From positions 666,727 to 698,726 of the forward strand of contig CBDAEK010000001.1 in NCBI GenBank assembly GCA_965194595.1: a stretch of 32,000 bases of DNA, given 5' to 3'. Position 1 is the stretch's first letter; each line of letters begins with the position of its first letter. The notes beneath the pieces are model-generated. The model ran no database searches. It saw only the letters and a list, made by a program, of their open reading frames with translations, and was not told the origin of the DNA. Positions 21,068-32,000 of the stretch are shown here, piece after piece. Source of the stretch: Oxalobacteraceae bacterium. GTDB lineage: Bacteria; Pseudomonadota; Gammaproteobacteria; Burkholderiales; Burkholderiaceae_D. The position numbers and the translations under genes were made by a program.

Positions 21068-21143
21068 GGGTCGTTAGCTCAGCTGGTAGAGCAGCGGACT
21101 TTTAATCCGTTGGTCGCAAGTTCGAATCTTGCACGACCTACCA
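21068..21143 (+). tRNA. tRNA-Lys (anticodon UUU), CCA encoded
   Basis: The sequence gggtcgttagctcagctggtagagcagcggacttttaatccgttggtcgcaagttcgaatcttgcacgacctacca folds as a cloverleaf. The anticodon loop is CUUUUAA, the T-loop is GTTCGAATC, and the acceptor pairs GGGTCGT with ACGACCT. Confidence 0.95.
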
Positions 21144-21163
21144 AAATTTAATGTTTTAATTCA

Positions 21164-21194
21164 ATGACTTACTGCGAAGTAGGTCATTTTTTTT
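21164..21194 (+). terminator. Intrinsic terminator after tRNA-Lys
   Basis: The stem atgacttac / gtaggtcat is 9 bp including one G-U pair. The loop is tgcgaa, and a run of 8 T follows. Confidence 0.75.
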
Positions 21195-24206: not shown

Positions 24207-25688
24207 TTATTGTTCAGATTTAGAAAATCCCTCTAACCTATTTCCCTTGATTGAAAAGTATGGGTTTTGCATTTGGGTCTGCATTTCGCCAATGATTTCG
24301 TGTTGAACATCAACAGATAATTTGTAGCGAACAATAAAAGCGTCATGAATATTGGCAATGGGCCTAATGCTGTACTTGGCCAATACAGCCCTAGCCACAT
24401 CCATCGCTTGGGTTTCGCAGTGTTGATAGAGGTACGCTACTGCTCTTGATTTACTGGGATTTACATTCGGCGTCACCAATGGGCTGAAGTAAATATCAGG
24501 CATTCCATCCTTCATCCCTTCGGCCAAATACTTGTCCAGTTGTGCCTGCTCTTGAATAAACTGTTTGACGATGGGGCACGATAGAAATCGCTCACGCTGT
24601 TCCTGATTTTGTATAAGACTTACCAAGGATGGATTGACCCATTCACCATTAGCTTCACGCCAGCCGTTGTTGTTGGCTCTAGCACCAAACCCAATAGCAG
24701 TGACTGCTTGCTTGATTAATGAATCCTGATAATCAACCGCCAACCCCGAATCCCGACCAAAAGTCTCAGATCGCACATCTCGCATGAATTCTTTGCGATT
24801 AGTCACGTACAAGATAGAGGCCCAATACAGTCGATCAGAGTCTTTTTCTGGATAGAGCTCTCGAGCTAATTCCTTTGCAAAGGTCAGCTTCCAAGTCACC
24901 ACTGCTGAACGAATATCGTATTCCCAGCAATTGCCTAGCATGGCTCGCCTCAAGGTTTTATTAACGTTTTGAACGCTAATCCCCGAGTAGTACATGCGTC
25001 CAAATTCACTGGGTTTACGACGTTGTGGAAATAACCCATTCGTGGTTTTTGCAACCGCTAAAATCGTCATTGCCTGTTCGGTGTATGACCTAACGGTAGA
25101 AGGGGAAAGCTTTGTGGCTTTGGTAGTAAGCCAGACGATATACGCTTGTAATGAGGCAATATCGATTGGGGCATCATCAAATGTAGCTAAGCGCTGCCGC
25201 TTATCAATCATGGTGAAATAATCTGGATAAAGCTTTGCAAACACATCTGCATTAGCTTTTGTATCCATGCATAGCAACTCATCCAGCGAACTCTCCGATG
25301 TGGCGCCGTTAAGTGTTTTGGCTACTGCATCTGCACCACCTTTGAGGGTAACTAACTCCGTTAACTTAACCAGAGAAACTAGTCCCGTTAGGTTGTTACC
25401 AACCTCTACAATCCTGACCAGTTCTAAGTGATTGGCTTTAAGCCACGCATGAAGCCGCTCCTTGCCCGCATTTAATTGCGGACCTTTATGCGTTAGATCC
25501 GCTACTGGGATGGAATACAGATTAAATTTTTCTTCATAAGCGCTGCGCCCGCGCAGAATGGATTTAAAAATCAAGTCTTCTAACAAAACCCGATATTTTT
25601 CCAATGCCTTTTCCGCACATCGAGGTGGCTTGGGATAACTCGAGCGCAACTTAGTGAGCACAATGGGATCAATATCAATTGTGAACAT
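24207..25688 (-). CDS. Family-A (Pol I / T7-like) polymerase-domain protein, stand-alone, no exonuclease domain
   Basis: 493 aa with SD GAGGA 7 nt upstream. FGRMYYSGISVQNV aligns gap-free with Klenow TGRLSSTDPNLQNI. The motif A candidate is WEYD258IRSAV. ETFG-x14-K326QAVTAIGFG aligns gap-free with EVFG-x14-KAINFGLIYG (O-helix). Motif C is NIHD449AF. The K-to-D spacing is 123, versus 124 in Klenow. Confidence 0.5.
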   Translation of the reverse strand: MFTIDIDPIVLTKLRSSYPKPPRCAEKALEKYRVLLEDLIFKSILRGRSAYEEKFNLYSIPVADLTHKGPQLNAGKERLHAWLKANHLELVRIVEVGNNLTGLVSLVKLTELVTLKGGADAVAKTLNGATSESSLDELLCMDTKANADVFAKLYPDYFTMIDKRQRLATFDDAPIDIASLQAYIVWLTTKATKLSPSTVRSYTEQAMTILAVAKTTNGLFPQRRKPSEFGRMYYSGISVQNVNKTLRRAMLGNCWEYDIRSAVVTWKLTFAKELARELYPEKDSDRLYWASILYVTNRKEFMRDVRSETFGRDSGLAVDYQDSLIKQAVTAIGFGARANNNGWREANGEWVNPSLVSLIQNQEQRERFLSCPIVKQFIQEQAQLDKYLAEGMKDGMPDIYFSPLVTPNVNPSKSRAVAYLYQHCETQAMDVARAVLAKYSIRPIANIHDAFIVRYKLSVDVQHEIIGEMQTQMQNPYFSIKGNRLEGFSKSEQ

Positions 25689-28027: not shown

Positions 28028-28192
28028 ATCCTGCATGTGTCCATAGTCTGGACAACTCAAGTTTGTCCAAAGCACTTTGTGCGTCATTTATATGTAAGGT
28101 CGACAGGCGTCAATAATCTTGACAGAATTGGGCTGCAGTCGTCAGCAATAAATGCCCCTTGGGTAAATACAATACCCAAGGAGATAACGCAC

Positions 28193-28564
28193 ATGAGATT
28201 TTATGAATTTGCCCCAGCTAAGCCTGTACTAAAAATCAGCCAACAGCAACAAGCACAACAAGCTGGGCTGCAAAGCACCACCCCTCCAACACCTTGGCCA
28301 CAGAATACGCAGCCAACACCCGCACCACGATCAGTCAAGGTGTATCCCGAGAAGTGGCAGCGCCAGTGGGTTCAAAAATACCTAGCTGCGAAAATCGCCC
28401 AAAATGCCCAAACTGTTCGACCCAGCAAAGAAGATCTGATTCGGGCTTACATGCTGTATGGCGAAGCTCGACGTAAAGCCAATCAAGATTATGAGGAAAC
28501 ACAGGGGAAAGATGAAGAATCTGGCTGGGGAAACGATCACCGCTGGACTCGTCGAGATAATTAA
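28193..28564 (+). CDS. Hypothetical protein (123 aa), Gln/Pro-rich N-terminal half
   Basis: The ORF 28037-28564 is trimmed to the ATG at 28193, which is preceded by cAAGGAGataacgcac. Its stop codon overlaps the stop codon of the convergent recombinase gene. Confidence 0.4.
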   Translation: MRFYEFAPAKPVLKISQQQQAQQAGLQSTTPPTPWPQNTQPTPAPRSVKVYPEKWQRQWVQKYLAAKIAQNAQTVRPSKEDLIRAYMLYGEARRKANQDYEETQGKDEESGWGNDHRWTRRDN

Positions 28565-29226
28565 ACCAACTCCACCGCCCTACGCTTCATATCGTCATTA
28601 ACGTCAATGTAGGCTTGGGTGGTGCTGATTGACCTATGTCCAGCTAAACTCATCAGCACACGCACACCAACGCCTTTTGCTGCCAAGTTAGTGATGAAAG
28701 TACGCCTACCCGAATGACTACTACCACCAGCAATGCCCGCTCGTTTGTACAAGTAATGAAAGTGCTGTGCTAGGGTGTTAGGGGTGAACCCCTCACGCTT
28801 TTGTGTGTAGAACAGTGGTGAGTTAGGATTAGTGGGTTTGTGGCTGCGTACATAAGCCTCAAGCTCACGCTTTAGTTTGGCATTGACGAACACAGTACGA
28901 GCATGACGCCCTTTGGTCTGTGCGGGTTCTAGCTGTATCTCATCACGTATCTTGCCCACGTCATCCACTACGTCTGCATATCTCAAATAAGCCACTTCAC
29001 CTACACGCATACCAGCCCAATGCGTTACTAACAGCATTGTGCGATTACGAAGTGCATGTTTGTGCTGTGCGACATAATCAAGCACTTGCTTCAAATTTTG
29101 CTGCGTTAGTGTTTTTGCTTGCTTGGGCATAGTTTGTTTTCGCTCCCCTAACCAAAACTTTGCTATGCGTACAGCGTAATTTCTTTGTTTTGTTTGGGCG
29201 ACCTGTTTTTGGTGGTTTTTTTTCAA
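28561..29226 (-). CDS. Short tyrosine recombinase, mostly catalytic domain (about 190-221 aa)
   Basis: Catalytic motifs are present: WAGMRVGEV (Arg I), HSGRRTF (His-x-x-Arg) and AGHRSISTTQAYIDV (His/Tyr nucleophile region). There is no long N-terminal arm-binding domain. A TTG start at 29226 has SD GAGGA 7 nt upstream. An internal ATG (MPKQAK) is an alternative start. Confidence 0.75.
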   Translation of the reverse strand: MKKNHQKQVAQTKQRNYAVRIAKFWLGERKQTMPKQAKTLTQQNLKQVLDYVAQHKHALRNRTMLLVTHWAGMRVGEVAYLRYADVVDDVGKIRDEIQLEPAQTKGRHARTVFVNAKLKRELEAYVRSHKPTNPNSPLFYTQKREGFTPNTLAQHFHYLYKRAGIAGGSSHSGRRTFITNLAAKGVGVRVLMSLAGHRSISTTQAYIDVNDDMKRRAVELV

Positions 29227-29411
29227 ATTTTCGTCCTCTGTAAATTCAATGACTTAGCTACTGATTACAGCAAAATCAAATCAAATGCTAATTCTGTTTG
29301 ATTTGTATATTTAGCTAATCTGTTGCTGATCTCGCAGGATTTTGTGCTGAAAATTCAGGCACAGCGAAAGAGTTGATTGAAATAACGAGATCGAGTTGCG
29401 AAATTTCGCCG

Positions 29412-29434
29412 TTATTCACAAATTATGTGGATAA
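29412..29434. promoter_or_regulatory. Pair of inverted DnaA-box consensus sites
   Basis: TTATTCACA at 29412-29420 matches TTATNCACA. TGTGGATAA at 29426-29434 is the reverse complement of TTATCCACA. They are separated by 5 bp. The 12-bp palindrome GCGAAATTTCGC (29398-29409) lies immediately upstream. Confidence 0.5.
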
Positions 29435-30253
29435 CTCAGTGCGACTGCGTACACACCCTACAAGCTGTTTTCGCTCTGTATAGCTGCCAAAGCACTACTG
29501 ATGCTTTTAAAGCTGCTGTAGAGCTTGTAAAGCAGCACATTGCTGCTGGGTTTTGTGTGACCGCAGCTCGGCATTTGTAGTGTTTGCTGTTTTACTGATT
29601 ACGAAATAGCTAAGTGATGTTGAGAGCGAACTGCGTTCGCTGTGCCTTCGCTATCTTCGCTCACTCGCGTTCGCTTAGTTAGCTCGTCACAGATATTTCA
29701 AGTTCTAGATTTCAAATGCTTGGAAGTATTTCGAAATTGGTTTGTTTGAAATCATGTTATGTGTTTGGCTTTCGCTAGATTCAACCCACACTGAGCCTTA
29801 CACAGCAGGCTCAGTGTGAGAGAAAGATCTTTCGCTGAGTTCTTTACTCCACTGCACTTCGGCACAACCTCTACGAGGTCAAGGGCGGTTTTGCTGTCTC
29901 CTTTTACGTGCTGCTGAATTAAAACGCAATCCACACCACAGCCGAAGTGCCGACCATGGCAGGTTTGTAGGTTGCCGTGTGAGCATTGCCTACTCGTGAT
30001 GCTCTGCCGTTGAGGCAGCATCTTTGTGCTTGATATTTCATTCTCTGGTCAATTGGGCTAGCAAAACCCAATAGCATCAAGGGTAGTGACCATGAGTCCC
30101 TGCTACTGCTCAGGATTTCCGTCCCTGCGATCATGTCTGTCCAGGTCTAGGGTGCCATTAGACTGAGTGGCACTGCTCGTTATCAGTAGTAATACGGGAT
30201 AGCACAGACTGTTCATTGCTGACGTCCCTCACAGTTATTTAGTCAAACCAAAC

Positions 30254-30290
30254 AAAACCCACGAAAAATCTAATGGGTTTTGTGGGTTTT
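30254..30290 (+). terminator. Terminator-like hairpin at the right end of the ORF-free region
   Basis: The stem aaaacccac (30254-30262) pairs with gtgggtttt (30282-30290), and an alternative inner pairing aaaaccca/tgggtttt is possible. T residues follow on the + strand, and TTTTGTTTGGTTT follows on the - strand. Confidence 0.4.
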
Positions 30291-30396
30291 AGACAGCAGC
30301 GTGGCAATCTCTCACAAAATCTGCGTAATTTTGGTCGTTCTTTGACCAAATCAGTCATAACTTATGTGTGCAGTTCAACTTTTAAGGAGAGCACAC

Positions 30397-30837
30397 ATGA
30401 ATGCATTAACTGGATTAAAGCTAGTCGCTAGCAAGAAAAATCGTACCCTTTCCCCAGTAGCCCATCGCCGTAACAAACTCGTCAACAAGCTGCATGAGCA
30501 GATTGAGTTATGCGAAGCACAAAAAGCTGGTGAGATTTATGCACCCCGTCGTCTGCGTACTGTCACTAACAAGCAAACTGGTGAACGTGTGACTATTGAA
30601 GCTGTCAAGCGTGTGAAGGAATGGTTTTGGATTAATGACGCTGGAAAAATCAATCTTGCTGTGCGCTATGGCAGCAAAGTGCTGGAACTAGCCAAGGGCA
30701 AGAATGCCATTGAGCTTGGCAGTGGTGACGAACTAATAGCTGCCTTACATGCACTTAAAGCAGCGGCACTGGCAGGGGAACTTGACGCACAGATTGAAGC
30801 TGCCAGTGGAGCGTTAAGGGCTGGGTTTGTTAAGTAG
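30397..30837 (+). CDS. Hypothetical protein (146 aa)
   Basis: The ORF 30364-30837 is trimmed to the ATG at 30397, which is preceded by tAAGGAGagcacac. The sequence MNALTGLKLVASKK...AGELDAQIEAASGALRAGF looks like a conserved island/ICE-associated protein family, but I cannot name it reliably. Confidence 0.55.
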   Translation: MNALTGLKLVASKKNRTLSPVAHRRNKLVNKLHEQIELCEAQKAGEIYAPRRLRTVTNKQTGERVTIEAVKRVKEWFWINDAGKINLAVRYGSKVLELAKGKNAIELGSGDELIAALHALKAAALAGELDAQIEAASGALRAGFVK

Positions 30838-31203
30838 TGGCGTTGCAGACGCCACGCCAATTGGTGCAGCTAGCACCAATGACCCAGCTTGTGGCAAACC
30901 CAGTGTCAAGCTGACGCTGGGTATTTCAACATTCGTAGCTGCGAATGTTGATACCACAAGCATTGATTTGGTTTAATCAGCACAGCTAGTGATGATTGAA
31001 GCAAACTAACTTTACTAATAGAGGGCGCCGCTGGCGCCCTGTTAGCTGGCGTGTACGCTGGCGACAGTCAGCAAAGCTATAAGACGACAATGACAGCCTC
31101 CCAGCGAGGCGTGTTTTGGCATTGAGACGATCTATCTCTGTAAGCCTGGGCCCAGGCACGATTTGAAAGAGGTAGAGGTAGCAAAGCACTCATTGCCTCA
31201 AGC

Positions 31204-31410
31204 TTAAATTCCAACGTTTACCGCTAACTTGTCTTTTACATCAGAAATCCTCCTACATACAAGATTATGCATCTCGTTATGGGATGCACTTTCCGGGGGG
31301 ATGCACTTTCCGGGGGCAAGCTCAACATCGGCAAAGCTAAGCATGCCCTGACCATTCTGCAGAAACGTTTGGCACCCACCAAGAAAAAGTGTCAAACTCA
31401 AAATCGGCAT
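31204..31410 (-). CDS. Possible small lipoprotein ORF (68 aa) interrupted by, or created by, a 17-bp tandem duplication
   Basis: The N-terminus MPILSLTLFLGGC has a lipobox. The reading frame passes through the duplication at 31282-31315. With a single copy, the ORF would stop after about 41 codons. Confidence 0.25.
   Translation of the reverse strand: MPILSLTLFLGGCQTFLQNGQGMLSFADVELAPGKCIPPESASHNEMHNLVCRRISDVKDKLAVNVGI
31282..31315. repeat. Perfect 17-bp tandem duplication
   Basis: The unit ggatgcactttccgggg occurs at 31282-31298 and is repeated exactly at 31299-31315. Confidence 0.95.
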
Positions 31411-31521
31411 TGCTGTAAGTAATGTGGACAGTTTTTAATGAATAGAGTCTAGATTTAAGGCATGATTAAAACAGCGAATACTATTTGCCAAAAGCAAAAG
31501 TCATAACAAAAACGATTTTTT

Positions 31522-31823: not shown

Positions 31824-32000
31824 TCAAGTACGAAGTGCAACACGGTTTAAAGATTCATGAAACACCTGATGAGGAGTTTTAAATCCTAATCGTTTTCTAG
31901 GGCGGTGATTCAATCGATCTTCAATCATTTTAAGCTCGGCATCAGTAACAGTCGATAAGTGCCGCTTTTTAGGAATGTACTGCCGTAATAAGCCGTTGTA
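31824..32000 (-). mobile_element. IS30-family transposase, C-terminal ~58 codons (the rest lies beyond the window)
   Basis: My minus-strand translation reads YNGLLRQYIPKKRHLSTVTDAELKMIEDRLNHRPRKRLGFKTPHQVFHESLNRVALRT*. The L(N)xRPRKxLGFKTPxxVF tail is characteristic of IS30-family DDE transposases. The stop codon is at 31826-31824. Confidence 0.7.

Follow-up and report, generated by a model that had tools for sequence, protein, structure and literature searches.

This study concerns a 1.17-kb region (positions 29227-30396) of a 32,000-nucleotide (nt) stretch of Oxalobacteraceae DNA, here called the window, to which all coordinates refer. The region belongs to an island that starts at a tRNA-Lys(UUU) gene (21068-21143, plus strand), followed by the gene of a 460-amino-acid (aa) integrase; it is bounded by the gene of a small tyrosine recombinase on its left and by a divergent gene of the DUF6641 family on its right (Table 1). 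We conclude with high confidence that a single gene, encoding a large structured non-coding RNA, occupies the minus strand between about 30230 and 29770 and probably extends to 29620; with equal confidence we assign the remaining part, 29620-29130, to the recombinase gene, as its upstream and leader region. The case for the RNA gene stands on its family membership, strand and extent, on covariation in its fold, on the joint variation of two direct repeats and on its gene neighbourhoods, all of which are observed. An earlier reading of the region, made from its letters alone (the sequence-only reading), had listed a series of palindromes, boxes, repeats and hairpins; on direct inspection of the sequence every one of them is present where it was placed.

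Table 1. Positions of the features of the region and of its two neighbouring genes.
Feature	Position	Strand	Remark
Small tyrosine recombinase gene	28561-29130	minus	catalytic domain only; 189 aa from ATG at 29130
AT-rich tract	29271-29330		73% A+T
CTAAATA box, candidate promoter of the recombinase gene	29308-29314	minus	second such box; inside the AT-rich tract
12-bp inverted repeat AGGCACAGCGAA	29357-29368, partner 29636-29647		repeats the left flank of hairpin 2 in inverse orientation
12-bp palindrome GCGAAATTTCGC	29398-29409		nested in AATAACG/CGTTATT arms
DnaA-box matches, inverted	TTATTCACA 29412-29420; TGTGGATAA 29426-29434		5 bp between them
TTCGCT copies	starts at 29470, 29636, 29647, 29656, 29670, 29771, 29831		
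Two-hairpin module	29620-29692	minus	TTCGCT cluster of the sequence-only reading
Hairpin 2 stem-loop AGCGAAC-GCA-GUUCGCU	29625-29641		
A/T-rich linker	29693-29768	minus	variable length
Conserved structured core	29769-30230	minus	5' lead, Rfam part and 280-nt 3' extension; 5' end estimated
R2, GAAUCU + AGCGAAAG	29769-29782	minus	second direct repeat; 3' edge of the conserved core
Clamp hairpin CACACUGAGCC/GGCUCAGUGUG (11-12-bp stem)	29787-29818	minus	between R1 and R2
R1, GAACUC + AGCGAAAG	29829-29842	minus	first direct repeat
Long-range helix GCACUU(CGGC)/(GCCG)AAGUGC	29854-29950	minus	arms 29950-29941 and 29863-29854; GCACTTCGGC at 29854-29863 with GCCGAAGTGC at 29941-29950
Polynucleobacter-1 motif, RF01718	30045-30178	minus	cmscan
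Stem ATTGGG/CCCAAT	30052-30072		
CTAAATA box, candidate RNA promoter	30236-30242	minus	late-promoter-like
Hairpin with T-run	30254-30290		upstream of the promoter-like box of the RNA
Palindrome TTTGGTC-N7-GACCAAA	30330-30350		
DUF6641 gene	30397-30837	plus	146 aa; divergent from the RNA; Pfam PF20346

The RNA gene, its relatives and its fold

A scan of the region with Rfam covariance models (cmscan) matched the family RF01718, Polynucleobacter-1, on the minus strand with 84.7 bits (E = 7.5e-17, against a gathering score of 37 bits), and the match covers model positions 1-141 of 141 without truncation. Apart from a chance microRNA match, no other Rfam family reached E <= 1 in the region. The sequence-only reading had assigned the region to no known RNA family, and in this it is superseded. 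Polynucleobacter-1 was described by Weinberg et al., 2010 (PMC2864571) as a candidate RNA without a known function that occurs in Polynucleobacter and aquatic metagenomes, mostly downstream of genes of the GOS11034 family; our literature search found the motif mentioned in that paper only. The window lacks this published context, its neighbour being the divergent DUF6641 gene. Context does not define the family, however, because the Polynucleobacter entry in the original alignment resembles the window in its flanks, and by eye the flanks in that alignment follow the window far beyond the 141-nt model (PMC2864571).

Relatives were collected with a degenerate pattern of the motif core, which gave at least 138 loci, 18 of them from genomes and at least 120 from metagenomes; all locus counts given here are among the matches listed. 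The 18 genome loci come from species-representative genomes, mostly of freshwater Betaproteobacteria (Limnohabitans, Comamonadaceae and metagenome-assembled genomes of Burkholderiales). The loci form two classes, class A with about 85 members including the window and class B with 52. In class A, 72 loci have a DUF6641 gene divergent from the RNA, and its distance upstream of the motif is nearly always 213-280 nt; it is the constant neighbour of the RNA in islands, so that the earlier suggestion of a tie between the region and an adjoining gene holds. A homologue of the small recombinase gene follows on the same strand in 23 class-A loci, at +780 to +7241; where 3 kb or more of downstream flank is available, about half of the loci lack it.

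The class-B contigs, some of them 160-183 kb long, are T4-like phages. Here the motif starts about 45 nt past the stop codon of a 144-aa SegE-type GIY-YIG protein, whose GIY-YIG domain (residues 3-129) takes up almost the whole chain; its gene is present in 42 of the 52 loci (PF19835, E = 2.1e-31) and was found only in the phage class. A gene for a gp46-like SMC/AAA ATPase lies upstream, and a T4 baseplate-hub gene is convergent downstream. The 144-aa protein is evidently the GOS11034 of Weinberg et al., whose genes are thus identified as SegE-type GIY-YIG genes of phages, and the SegE gene may simply be a homing endonuclease gene parked beside a conserved target. The RNA is therefore common to freshwater T4-like phages and bacterial islands. 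By blastn, neither GenBank phages nor PLSDB plasmids matched the region, and phages gave no match to a class-B RNA; two strict DNA patterns likewise found nothing in IMG/VR.

Within class A, blastn similarity to the minus strand of the window (72-76% identity) runs leftwards from 30290 or 30194 and stops sharply at 29767-29770 in more than 60 loci. The same boundary is seen in an alignment of 42 non-redundant class-A sequences, the basis of the consensus structure described below, in which conserved blocks are interspersed with variable ones between about 30290 and 29770, where conservation collapses. The Rfam model is thus the 5' third only of an RNA about four times longer than its 141-nt database entry. 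The Polynucleobacter-1 family itself is already in Rfam, and the window copy, which matches the full model on the same strand, is a further member; what is new here is the true size of the RNA, its two settings, the direct repeats R1 and R2 with their joint variation, the hairpins at its end and the promoter-like boxes. The published description does not include the 3' extension, these repeats, hairpins and box or the setting of DUF6641 and recombinase genes, and of context it gives only the position behind GOS11034 genes.

No protein-coding role was found for the region, in agreement with the sequence-only reading. That reading had also raised the possibility of decayed protein-coding genes, and the region does hold minus-strand open frames of 89 and 71 codons, its longest stop-free frame being 98 codons. 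Across the 42 homologues, however, 3-base periodicity is absent (variability by codon phase 0.167/0.168/0.184), indels are mostly not multiples of three (lengths modulo 3: 322 leave 1, 237 leave 2 and 46 leave 0), the longest open frames are inconsistent in frame and strand between sequences, and structural covariation is strong. We consider decayed genes rejected, with a negligible residual probability.

The consensus structure of the 42 sequences has 109 pairs, in which 94.9% of cells are paired, whereas shuffles reach 89.2 +/- 0.2 and slid controls 32-38%. Changes on both sides occur in 41 pairs (25.4 +/- 2.3 in shuffles, 12-21 in slid controls) and in 264 cells (68.6 in shuffles), and none of 500 shuffles equalled the observed covariation values. 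Well-supported helices lie both inside the Rfam part, where helices 4, 7, 9 and 11 have 2-5 pairs each changed on both sides, and in the 280 nt past it (helices 13, 14, 15, 17, 19 and 22). The strand of the RNA follows from the alternation of G-U with G-C and A-U pairs (CG 23 / UG 19, GC 21 / GU 18 and AU 23 / GU 19), which in many helices, those of the Rfam part included, fits the minus strand only.

Three of the pairings first noticed by eye prove to be covarying helices. The long-range complementarity is a true helix with compensatory pairs (GC 36 / CG 5 / AT 1; AT 41 / GC 1; CG 41 / TA 1; TA 36 / AT 1), better supported than the alternative pairing given by RNAalifold, and it encloses local stems together with the invariant block UAAAAGGAGA...AAACCGCCCUU. 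The ATTGGG/CCCAAT stem (helix 11) forms the final hairpin in the Rfam model, and the hairpin at 29625-29641, discussed below as hairpin 2, also covaries across loci. The proposal of a structured RNA several hundred nucleotides long in the right two-thirds of the region is therefore retained as to structure and size and abandoned as to direction, since it had the RNA end at a terminator at 30254-30290. With the RNA on the minus strand, that hairpin lies upstream, 5' of both the RNA and its promoter-like box, and is no terminator; a terminator scan did not include it among its predictions, and a hairpin occurs at this position in some relatives only. The palindrome in front of the DUF6641 gene was considered as a conserved operator and rejected, being present only in near-identical relatives of the window.

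In its length of several hundred nucleotides, its complex covarying fold, its invariant unpaired blocks and its occurrence in phages and mobile elements, the RNA resembles GOLLD and ROOL. It has no sequence or model similarity to either, RF01718 being the only family at E <= 1.

Paired repeats and terminal hairpins

At the 3' edge of the conserved core, two direct repeats, R1 and R2, flank the clamp hairpin, which is nearly invariant, changes only between A-U and G-U (helix 23) and was marked by Weinberg et al. as a possible terminator (PMC2864571). Each repeat contains a block of 7-8 nt that differs between lineages, with both copies altered together: in 112 of 117 loci at least 6 of 9 bases agree between R1 and R2, and about 20 variants occur across the two classes. 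The class-A variants are AGCGAAAG, AUCGAAAG, ACCAAAAG, AUCAAAAG, GACAAAAG, AUUGAAAG, AGCAGAAU and GCAAAAU, and those of class B include GGAUAAU, AGAUGAU, GCAUAAU, AGAUGAG and GGAUGAA; the blocks are purine-rich. To our knowledge such twin co-varying direct repeats have no counterpart in GOLLD or ROOL. Because R1 and R2 are identical to one another and yet free to vary, both must fit one partner, which could be a complementary strand or a protein with co-evolving specificity; a pairing role would be the simplest use of such blocks. One candidate, that R guides the element to its tRNA integration site, was rejected, as islands at tRNA-Lys and tRNA-Met share AGCGAAAG and two tRNA-Lys islands differ.

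R1 and R2 could also be the twin guides of a guide or bridge-type RNA, which in phages would bring the GIY-YIG nuclease, and in islands the tyrosine recombinase, to DNA with a matching 7-8-bp core, both enzymes having no DNA-binding domain of their own. The 144-aa phage neighbour is little more than its catalytic domain, the recombinase aligns only to the catalytic halves of Xer proteins, and the repeats are hypervariable yet identical and as long as the crossover region of tyrosine recombinases. The arrangement also recalls the IS110 bridge RNA and the IscB/TnpB omega RNA (HEARO), in which a structured RNA lies beside a small recombinase or nuclease and carries variable segments in a scaffold. 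There, however, the likeness ends: R1 and R2 are identical to each other instead of matching two different DNAs, no insertion sequence (IS) ends were found, and in place of a DEDD/serine recombinase with its RNA at an IS end we find tyrosine recombinase and GIY-YIG enzymes, with the recombinase absent in about half of the island loci. Together with the failure of R to track the adjacent tRNA, the ordinary explanation of a homing endonuclease gene beside a conserved RNA gene, and the fact that recombinases of FimB/E size function without RNA, this makes a guide RNA of this type very unlikely.

Downstream of R2 the core gives way to an A/T-rich linker (67% A+T, compared with 50% in the core) of 22-251 nt, median 82 in 90 loci, which leads to a module of two hairpins that both class A and the phage class B conserve. 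Hairpin 1 displays G-AGCGA-nn-AGCGA-A in its loop on a covarying stem (GUGAU/AUCAC, GCUAU/AUAGC and others). Hairpin 2 follows directly and has a short loop of G-N-A type; its stems vary with pairing kept, in 31 distinct 5' arms (for example AGCGAAC/GUUCGCU, AGCGAGC/GCUCGCU, AGUGAAC/GUUCACU and AGAUGUAC/GUACAUCU). These hairpins account for the TTCGCT cluster. The hexamer is indeed in excess, with seven copies in the region, a number that none of 2000 shuffles reached (expectation from shuffles 0.39), but the cluster that was thought iteron-like is the loop and stem of two hairpins conserved in phage contigs too, and the outlying copies at 29771 and 29831 belong to R2 and R1 inside the RNA.

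Long folded RNAs, an A/T-rich stretch and an upstream segment that recurs downstream on the coding strand are also features of R-loop origins such as those of ColE1 RNA II and T4, and an RNA-primed (R-loop) replication origin of the ColE1 RNA II or T4 oriF/oriG kind offers another account of the same layout. The structured RNA would be a pre-primer whose R1 pairs with the template DNA at R2 and so anchors a persistent hybrid; DNA synthesis would start into the A/T-rich linker, the hairpins of the displaced strand would serve as single-strand initiation signals, and the islands would be replicated by the machinery of the infecting phage. Template pairing predicts precisely the joint variation of an upstream RNA segment and a downstream site that we see in R1 and R2. 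The purine-rich R blocks, the A/T-rich linker of variable length after R2, the hairpins that follow R2 at 22-251 nt, an island in which Rep, primase and helicase genes are not recognisable, and DnaA boxes nearby in two clades fit as well. Against it, so complex a fold, with so many invariant nucleotides left unpaired, goes beyond the known needs of a pre-primer, and the pattern of conservation suggests more than a primer; a partner like the antisense RNA I of ColE1 was not found, and the conserved hairpins would equally fit the 3' end of the RNA. We regard such an origin as unlikely. A broader idea, that of a programmable recognition RNA in which the lineage-specific R1 and R2 pair with two copies of one short DNA or RNA core and either direct the two enzymes without binding domains or anchor an R-loop through which islands borrow the replication machinery of a T4-like phage, seems to us similarly improbable.

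The terminal hairpins can also be considered at the level of DNA, as the hairpin-2 site can evidently recombine. In one relative, L080, which is 98.5% identical to the window over the aligning segment, a 1.8-kb insertion (1110-2912, oriented) sits exactly at hairpin 2; it holds three ORFs (open reading frames) on the same strand, of 109, 77 and 124 aa, and has a copy of the hairpin at either end, AGCGAAC-gca-GTTCGCT and AACGAAC-tcta-GTTCGTT. We considered an integron-like cassette array downstream of the RNA and rejected it, the second hairpin site being present in L080 alone. A second observation at the DNA level is the perfect 12-bp inverted repeat AGGCACAGCGAA, which encloses 267 bp including the DnaA boxes and occurs only in the clade of the window (the window, L087 and L121), in the same orientation in all three; beside a recombinase of FimB/E size, it could be an invertible switch.

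On these grounds the region might be a recombination or inversion site for the small tyrosine recombinase, with hairpin 2 as its palindromic core site and the AGCGA repeats as accessory sites (as in the Tn4430 IRS or attI), and with the inverted copy at 29357-29368 making 29369-29635 invertible in the manner of the fim switch. The insertion at hairpin 2, the inverted repeat and the order of direct repeats followed by an inverted repeat in the sequence speak for it, as does the likeness to fim itself, where a recombinase of about 190 aa (FimB or FimE) lies beside about 270 bp between short inverted repeats. However, the hairpin module is equally conserved in phage contigs with no tyrosine recombinase nearby, its 31 stem arms with pairing kept fit a folded strand and not a fixed protein site, the recombinase is missing from about half of the well-flanked class-A loci, and the insertion was seen once. 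Moreover, unlike at fim, the inverted repeat is confined to one clade, no inverted variant was seen, and one arm overlaps a hairpin of the RNA. A recombination site, which would be compatible with an RNA gene, is in our estimation improbable as the explanation of the region.

Promoter-like boxes, DnaA boxes and island neighbours

A box of the form [ACT]TAAATA, mostly CTAAATA or ATAAATA, lies 75-100 nt before the motif start at a fixed position in 35 of 37 class-A sequences, in none of which it is found on the opposite strand at that place. The recombinase gene has a box of its own, NTAAATA, which in 23 of 24 loci stands 154-221 nt ahead of the gene's start. Neither the RNA boxes nor the recombinase boxes have a conserved -35 element, and no sigma-70-type promoter was predicted on either strand of 29000-30500. 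The late promoter of T4 has the form TATAAATA and that of cyanomyoviruses NATAAATA (PMC2984593), and the CTAAATA box matches six or seven of the eight bases of the late-promoter consensus. Several class-B contigs carry the box after hairpin 2, 10-25 nt ahead of the next ATG. Whether (C/A)TAAATA serves as a T4-type late promoter is a matter of about even odds. The RNA is likely to be transcribed from the CTAAATA box and to end at or near the two hairpins. We also observed a conserved block GG(A/G)CAACC (CGACC in the window, at about 30322-30316), some 80-90 nt upstream of the TAAATA box in the intergenic region between the DUF6641 gene and the RNA of most class-A loci.

The left third of the region had been taken for a DnaA-dependent origin with iteron-like repeats, and it does share DnaA boxes, an AT-rich tract and clustered short repeats with iteron/DnaA plasmid origins. 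The two inverted DnaA-box matches are real, one perfect and the other fitting the relaxed consensus (TTWTNCACA) only, and the AT-rich tract lies close by. Ahead of the recombinase gene, 10 of 24 loci have a perfect TTATCCACA box; they belong to two clades (box at about -302/-322 from the start codon in one and about -171 in the other), and the background is 0.1 relaxed DnaA boxes per kb. The origin itself is another matter: iterons, sought as direct repeats of about 17-22 bp with regular spacing, were not found, the hexamers being spaced irregularly at 11, 9 and 14 nt inside phage-conserved hairpins; scans of the island ORFs with Pfam, PHROGs and NCBIfam gave no family match to Rep, primase or helicase; the box is absent from 14 of the 24 loci; the AT-rich tract holds the conserved CTAAATA promoter-like box; and one or two boxes before a gene would equally fit DnaA-dependent regulation. 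We therefore hold an origin of this type to be highly improbable.

The recombinase encoded downstream matches Pfam Phage_integrase (E = 5.8e-27), aligns only to the C-terminal halves of the XerA, XerC and XerD models and has the size of the FimB/E invertases; no relative of it was found in IMG/VR. Its leader contains one copy of an exact 14-nt direct repeat, AATTCAATGACTTA, at 29243-29256, the other lying at 21158-21171, 15 nt past tRNA-Lys. About 0.02-0.04 such matches would be expected by chance, and the repeat may be a recombination site or a coincidence.

The right-hand neighbour had been described as part of a polymerase-like module. It proves to be a 146-aa DUF6641 protein, and scans of the island ORFs with Pfam, PHROGs and NCBIfam gave no match to a polymerase family. 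The DUF6641 family is large, with 2828 hits at E <= 1e-5, and our literature search found no paper that mentions it. The AlphaFold model (mean predicted local distance difference test score 76.6) consists of a long helix, a five-stranded sheet and two helices, and Foldseek returned no structural relative at E <= 0.001 in PDB or BFVD. A DUF6641 homologue of 42% identity occurs on L001, a 25-kb IMG/VR contig that has no Polynucleobacter-1 RNA near it and is the one viral DUF6641 locus found; the protein can therefore occur without the RNA. In 24, 16 and 6 class-A loci (three sequence clusters), the DUF6641 gene is followed on the same strand by that of a small proline/glutamine-rich protein, whose relative in the window, the 175-aa ORF at 28037-28564, lies instead beside the recombinase gene.

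Pfam, PHROGs and NCBIfam gave no hits to the island ORFs of 493, 322, 330, 175, 176 and 173 aa. The ORF of 493 aa (24207-25688, minus strand), the only one of the island ORFs searched against PDB sequences, had no match there and has no homologue in the other loci; it contains a ...NIHDAF... stretch and may be what was read as polymerase-like. The same island is carried by a 10.7-kb contig from another sample. No attR in the form of a copy of the tRNA 3' end of at least 12 nt was found. The 680 nt or so past the DUF6641 gene (30838-31520) are without an ORF of at least 90 aa and may hold the far end of the island; they include a palindrome at 30926-30951 and a perfect 17-mer, GGGATGCACTTTCCGGG, twice in tandem at 31281-31314. 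Elsewhere in the window we noted a bacterial small signal recognition particle RNA at 1346-1444 on the minus strand, and, at 31826-32000 on the minus strand, a stretch (...LNHRPRKRLGFKTPHQVF...) that we take for the C-terminus of a transposase of the IS30 family, truncated at the end of the window.

A possible mode of action and its meaning

For the region as a whole, the explanation that we judge best, and consider reasonably probable, is a large structured RNA gene. Its product would act in trans, and we put forward more tentatively a mechanism in which it is made late in phage infection and offers R1 and R2 for pairing. An invariant (C/A)TAAATA box with no -35 element, in the form of a T4-type late promoter, stands before the RNA and before the recombinase gene; if the form is a guide to function, the island RNA, and the recombinase with it, would be expressed in the late phase, when a T4-like phage runs its late transcription programme, and their transcription would depend on the phage proteins gp55, gp33 and gp45. 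T4-like phages have a version of the RNA of their own. The folded core has two identical purine-rich strands of 7-8 nt on either side of the clamp hairpin, and both would recognise the same partner, most simply by pairing with 5'-CUUUCGCU-3', the complement of the window's repeat, on a nucleic acid supplied in trans or on the DNA itself. We prefer a trans-acting RNA of this kind, and its main rival is the RNA-primed origin in which R1 pairs with the template at R2; a role for hairpin 2 as a recombination site can be compatible with either mechanism.

Several observations weigh against this reading or against parts of it. Both ends of the RNA are estimates. The stems of hairpin 2 give no strand signal (5 G-U and 4 A-C pairs), and the module could therefore act as DNA, being able to fold either as RNA or as single-stranded DNA. 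No complementary partner of R1 and R2 was found at a consistent place within the loci. In a crude count the (C/A)TAAATA box shows no clear enrichment before the ORFs of the phage contigs (36 of 351, compared with 27 in the reverse-complement control), so that the argument for a late promoter comes from its invariance and position. Finally, with a covariance model of the class-A extension, 7 of the 52 class-B loci yielded 8 hits in all at E < 0.01; seven of these hits lie at the expected position, three of them strong (64, 64 and 33 bits) and four weak; because the model finds a minority of class B, the homology of the extension between the classes depends partly on a layout that they share when aligned by eye. 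The three loci with strong matches, L029, L057 and L115, are placed in class B and may be intermediate forms.

Polynucleobacter-1 has been an orphan motif since 2010. It now appears as the 5' third of a covarying RNA of about 450-620 nt, and so joins the few very large RNAs of bacteria and phages, a kind that has often proved to consist of ribozymes or machines. The RNA is common to T4-like phages and to chromosomal islands of abundant freshwater bacteria, where it may be switched on by phage late transcription. The co-variation of R1 and R2 is an unusual signal and gives a direct experimental handle on the partner that they recognise. If the RNA mediates an interplay between phage and island, it would represent a new kind of phage-responsive element in freshwater Betaproteobacteria.

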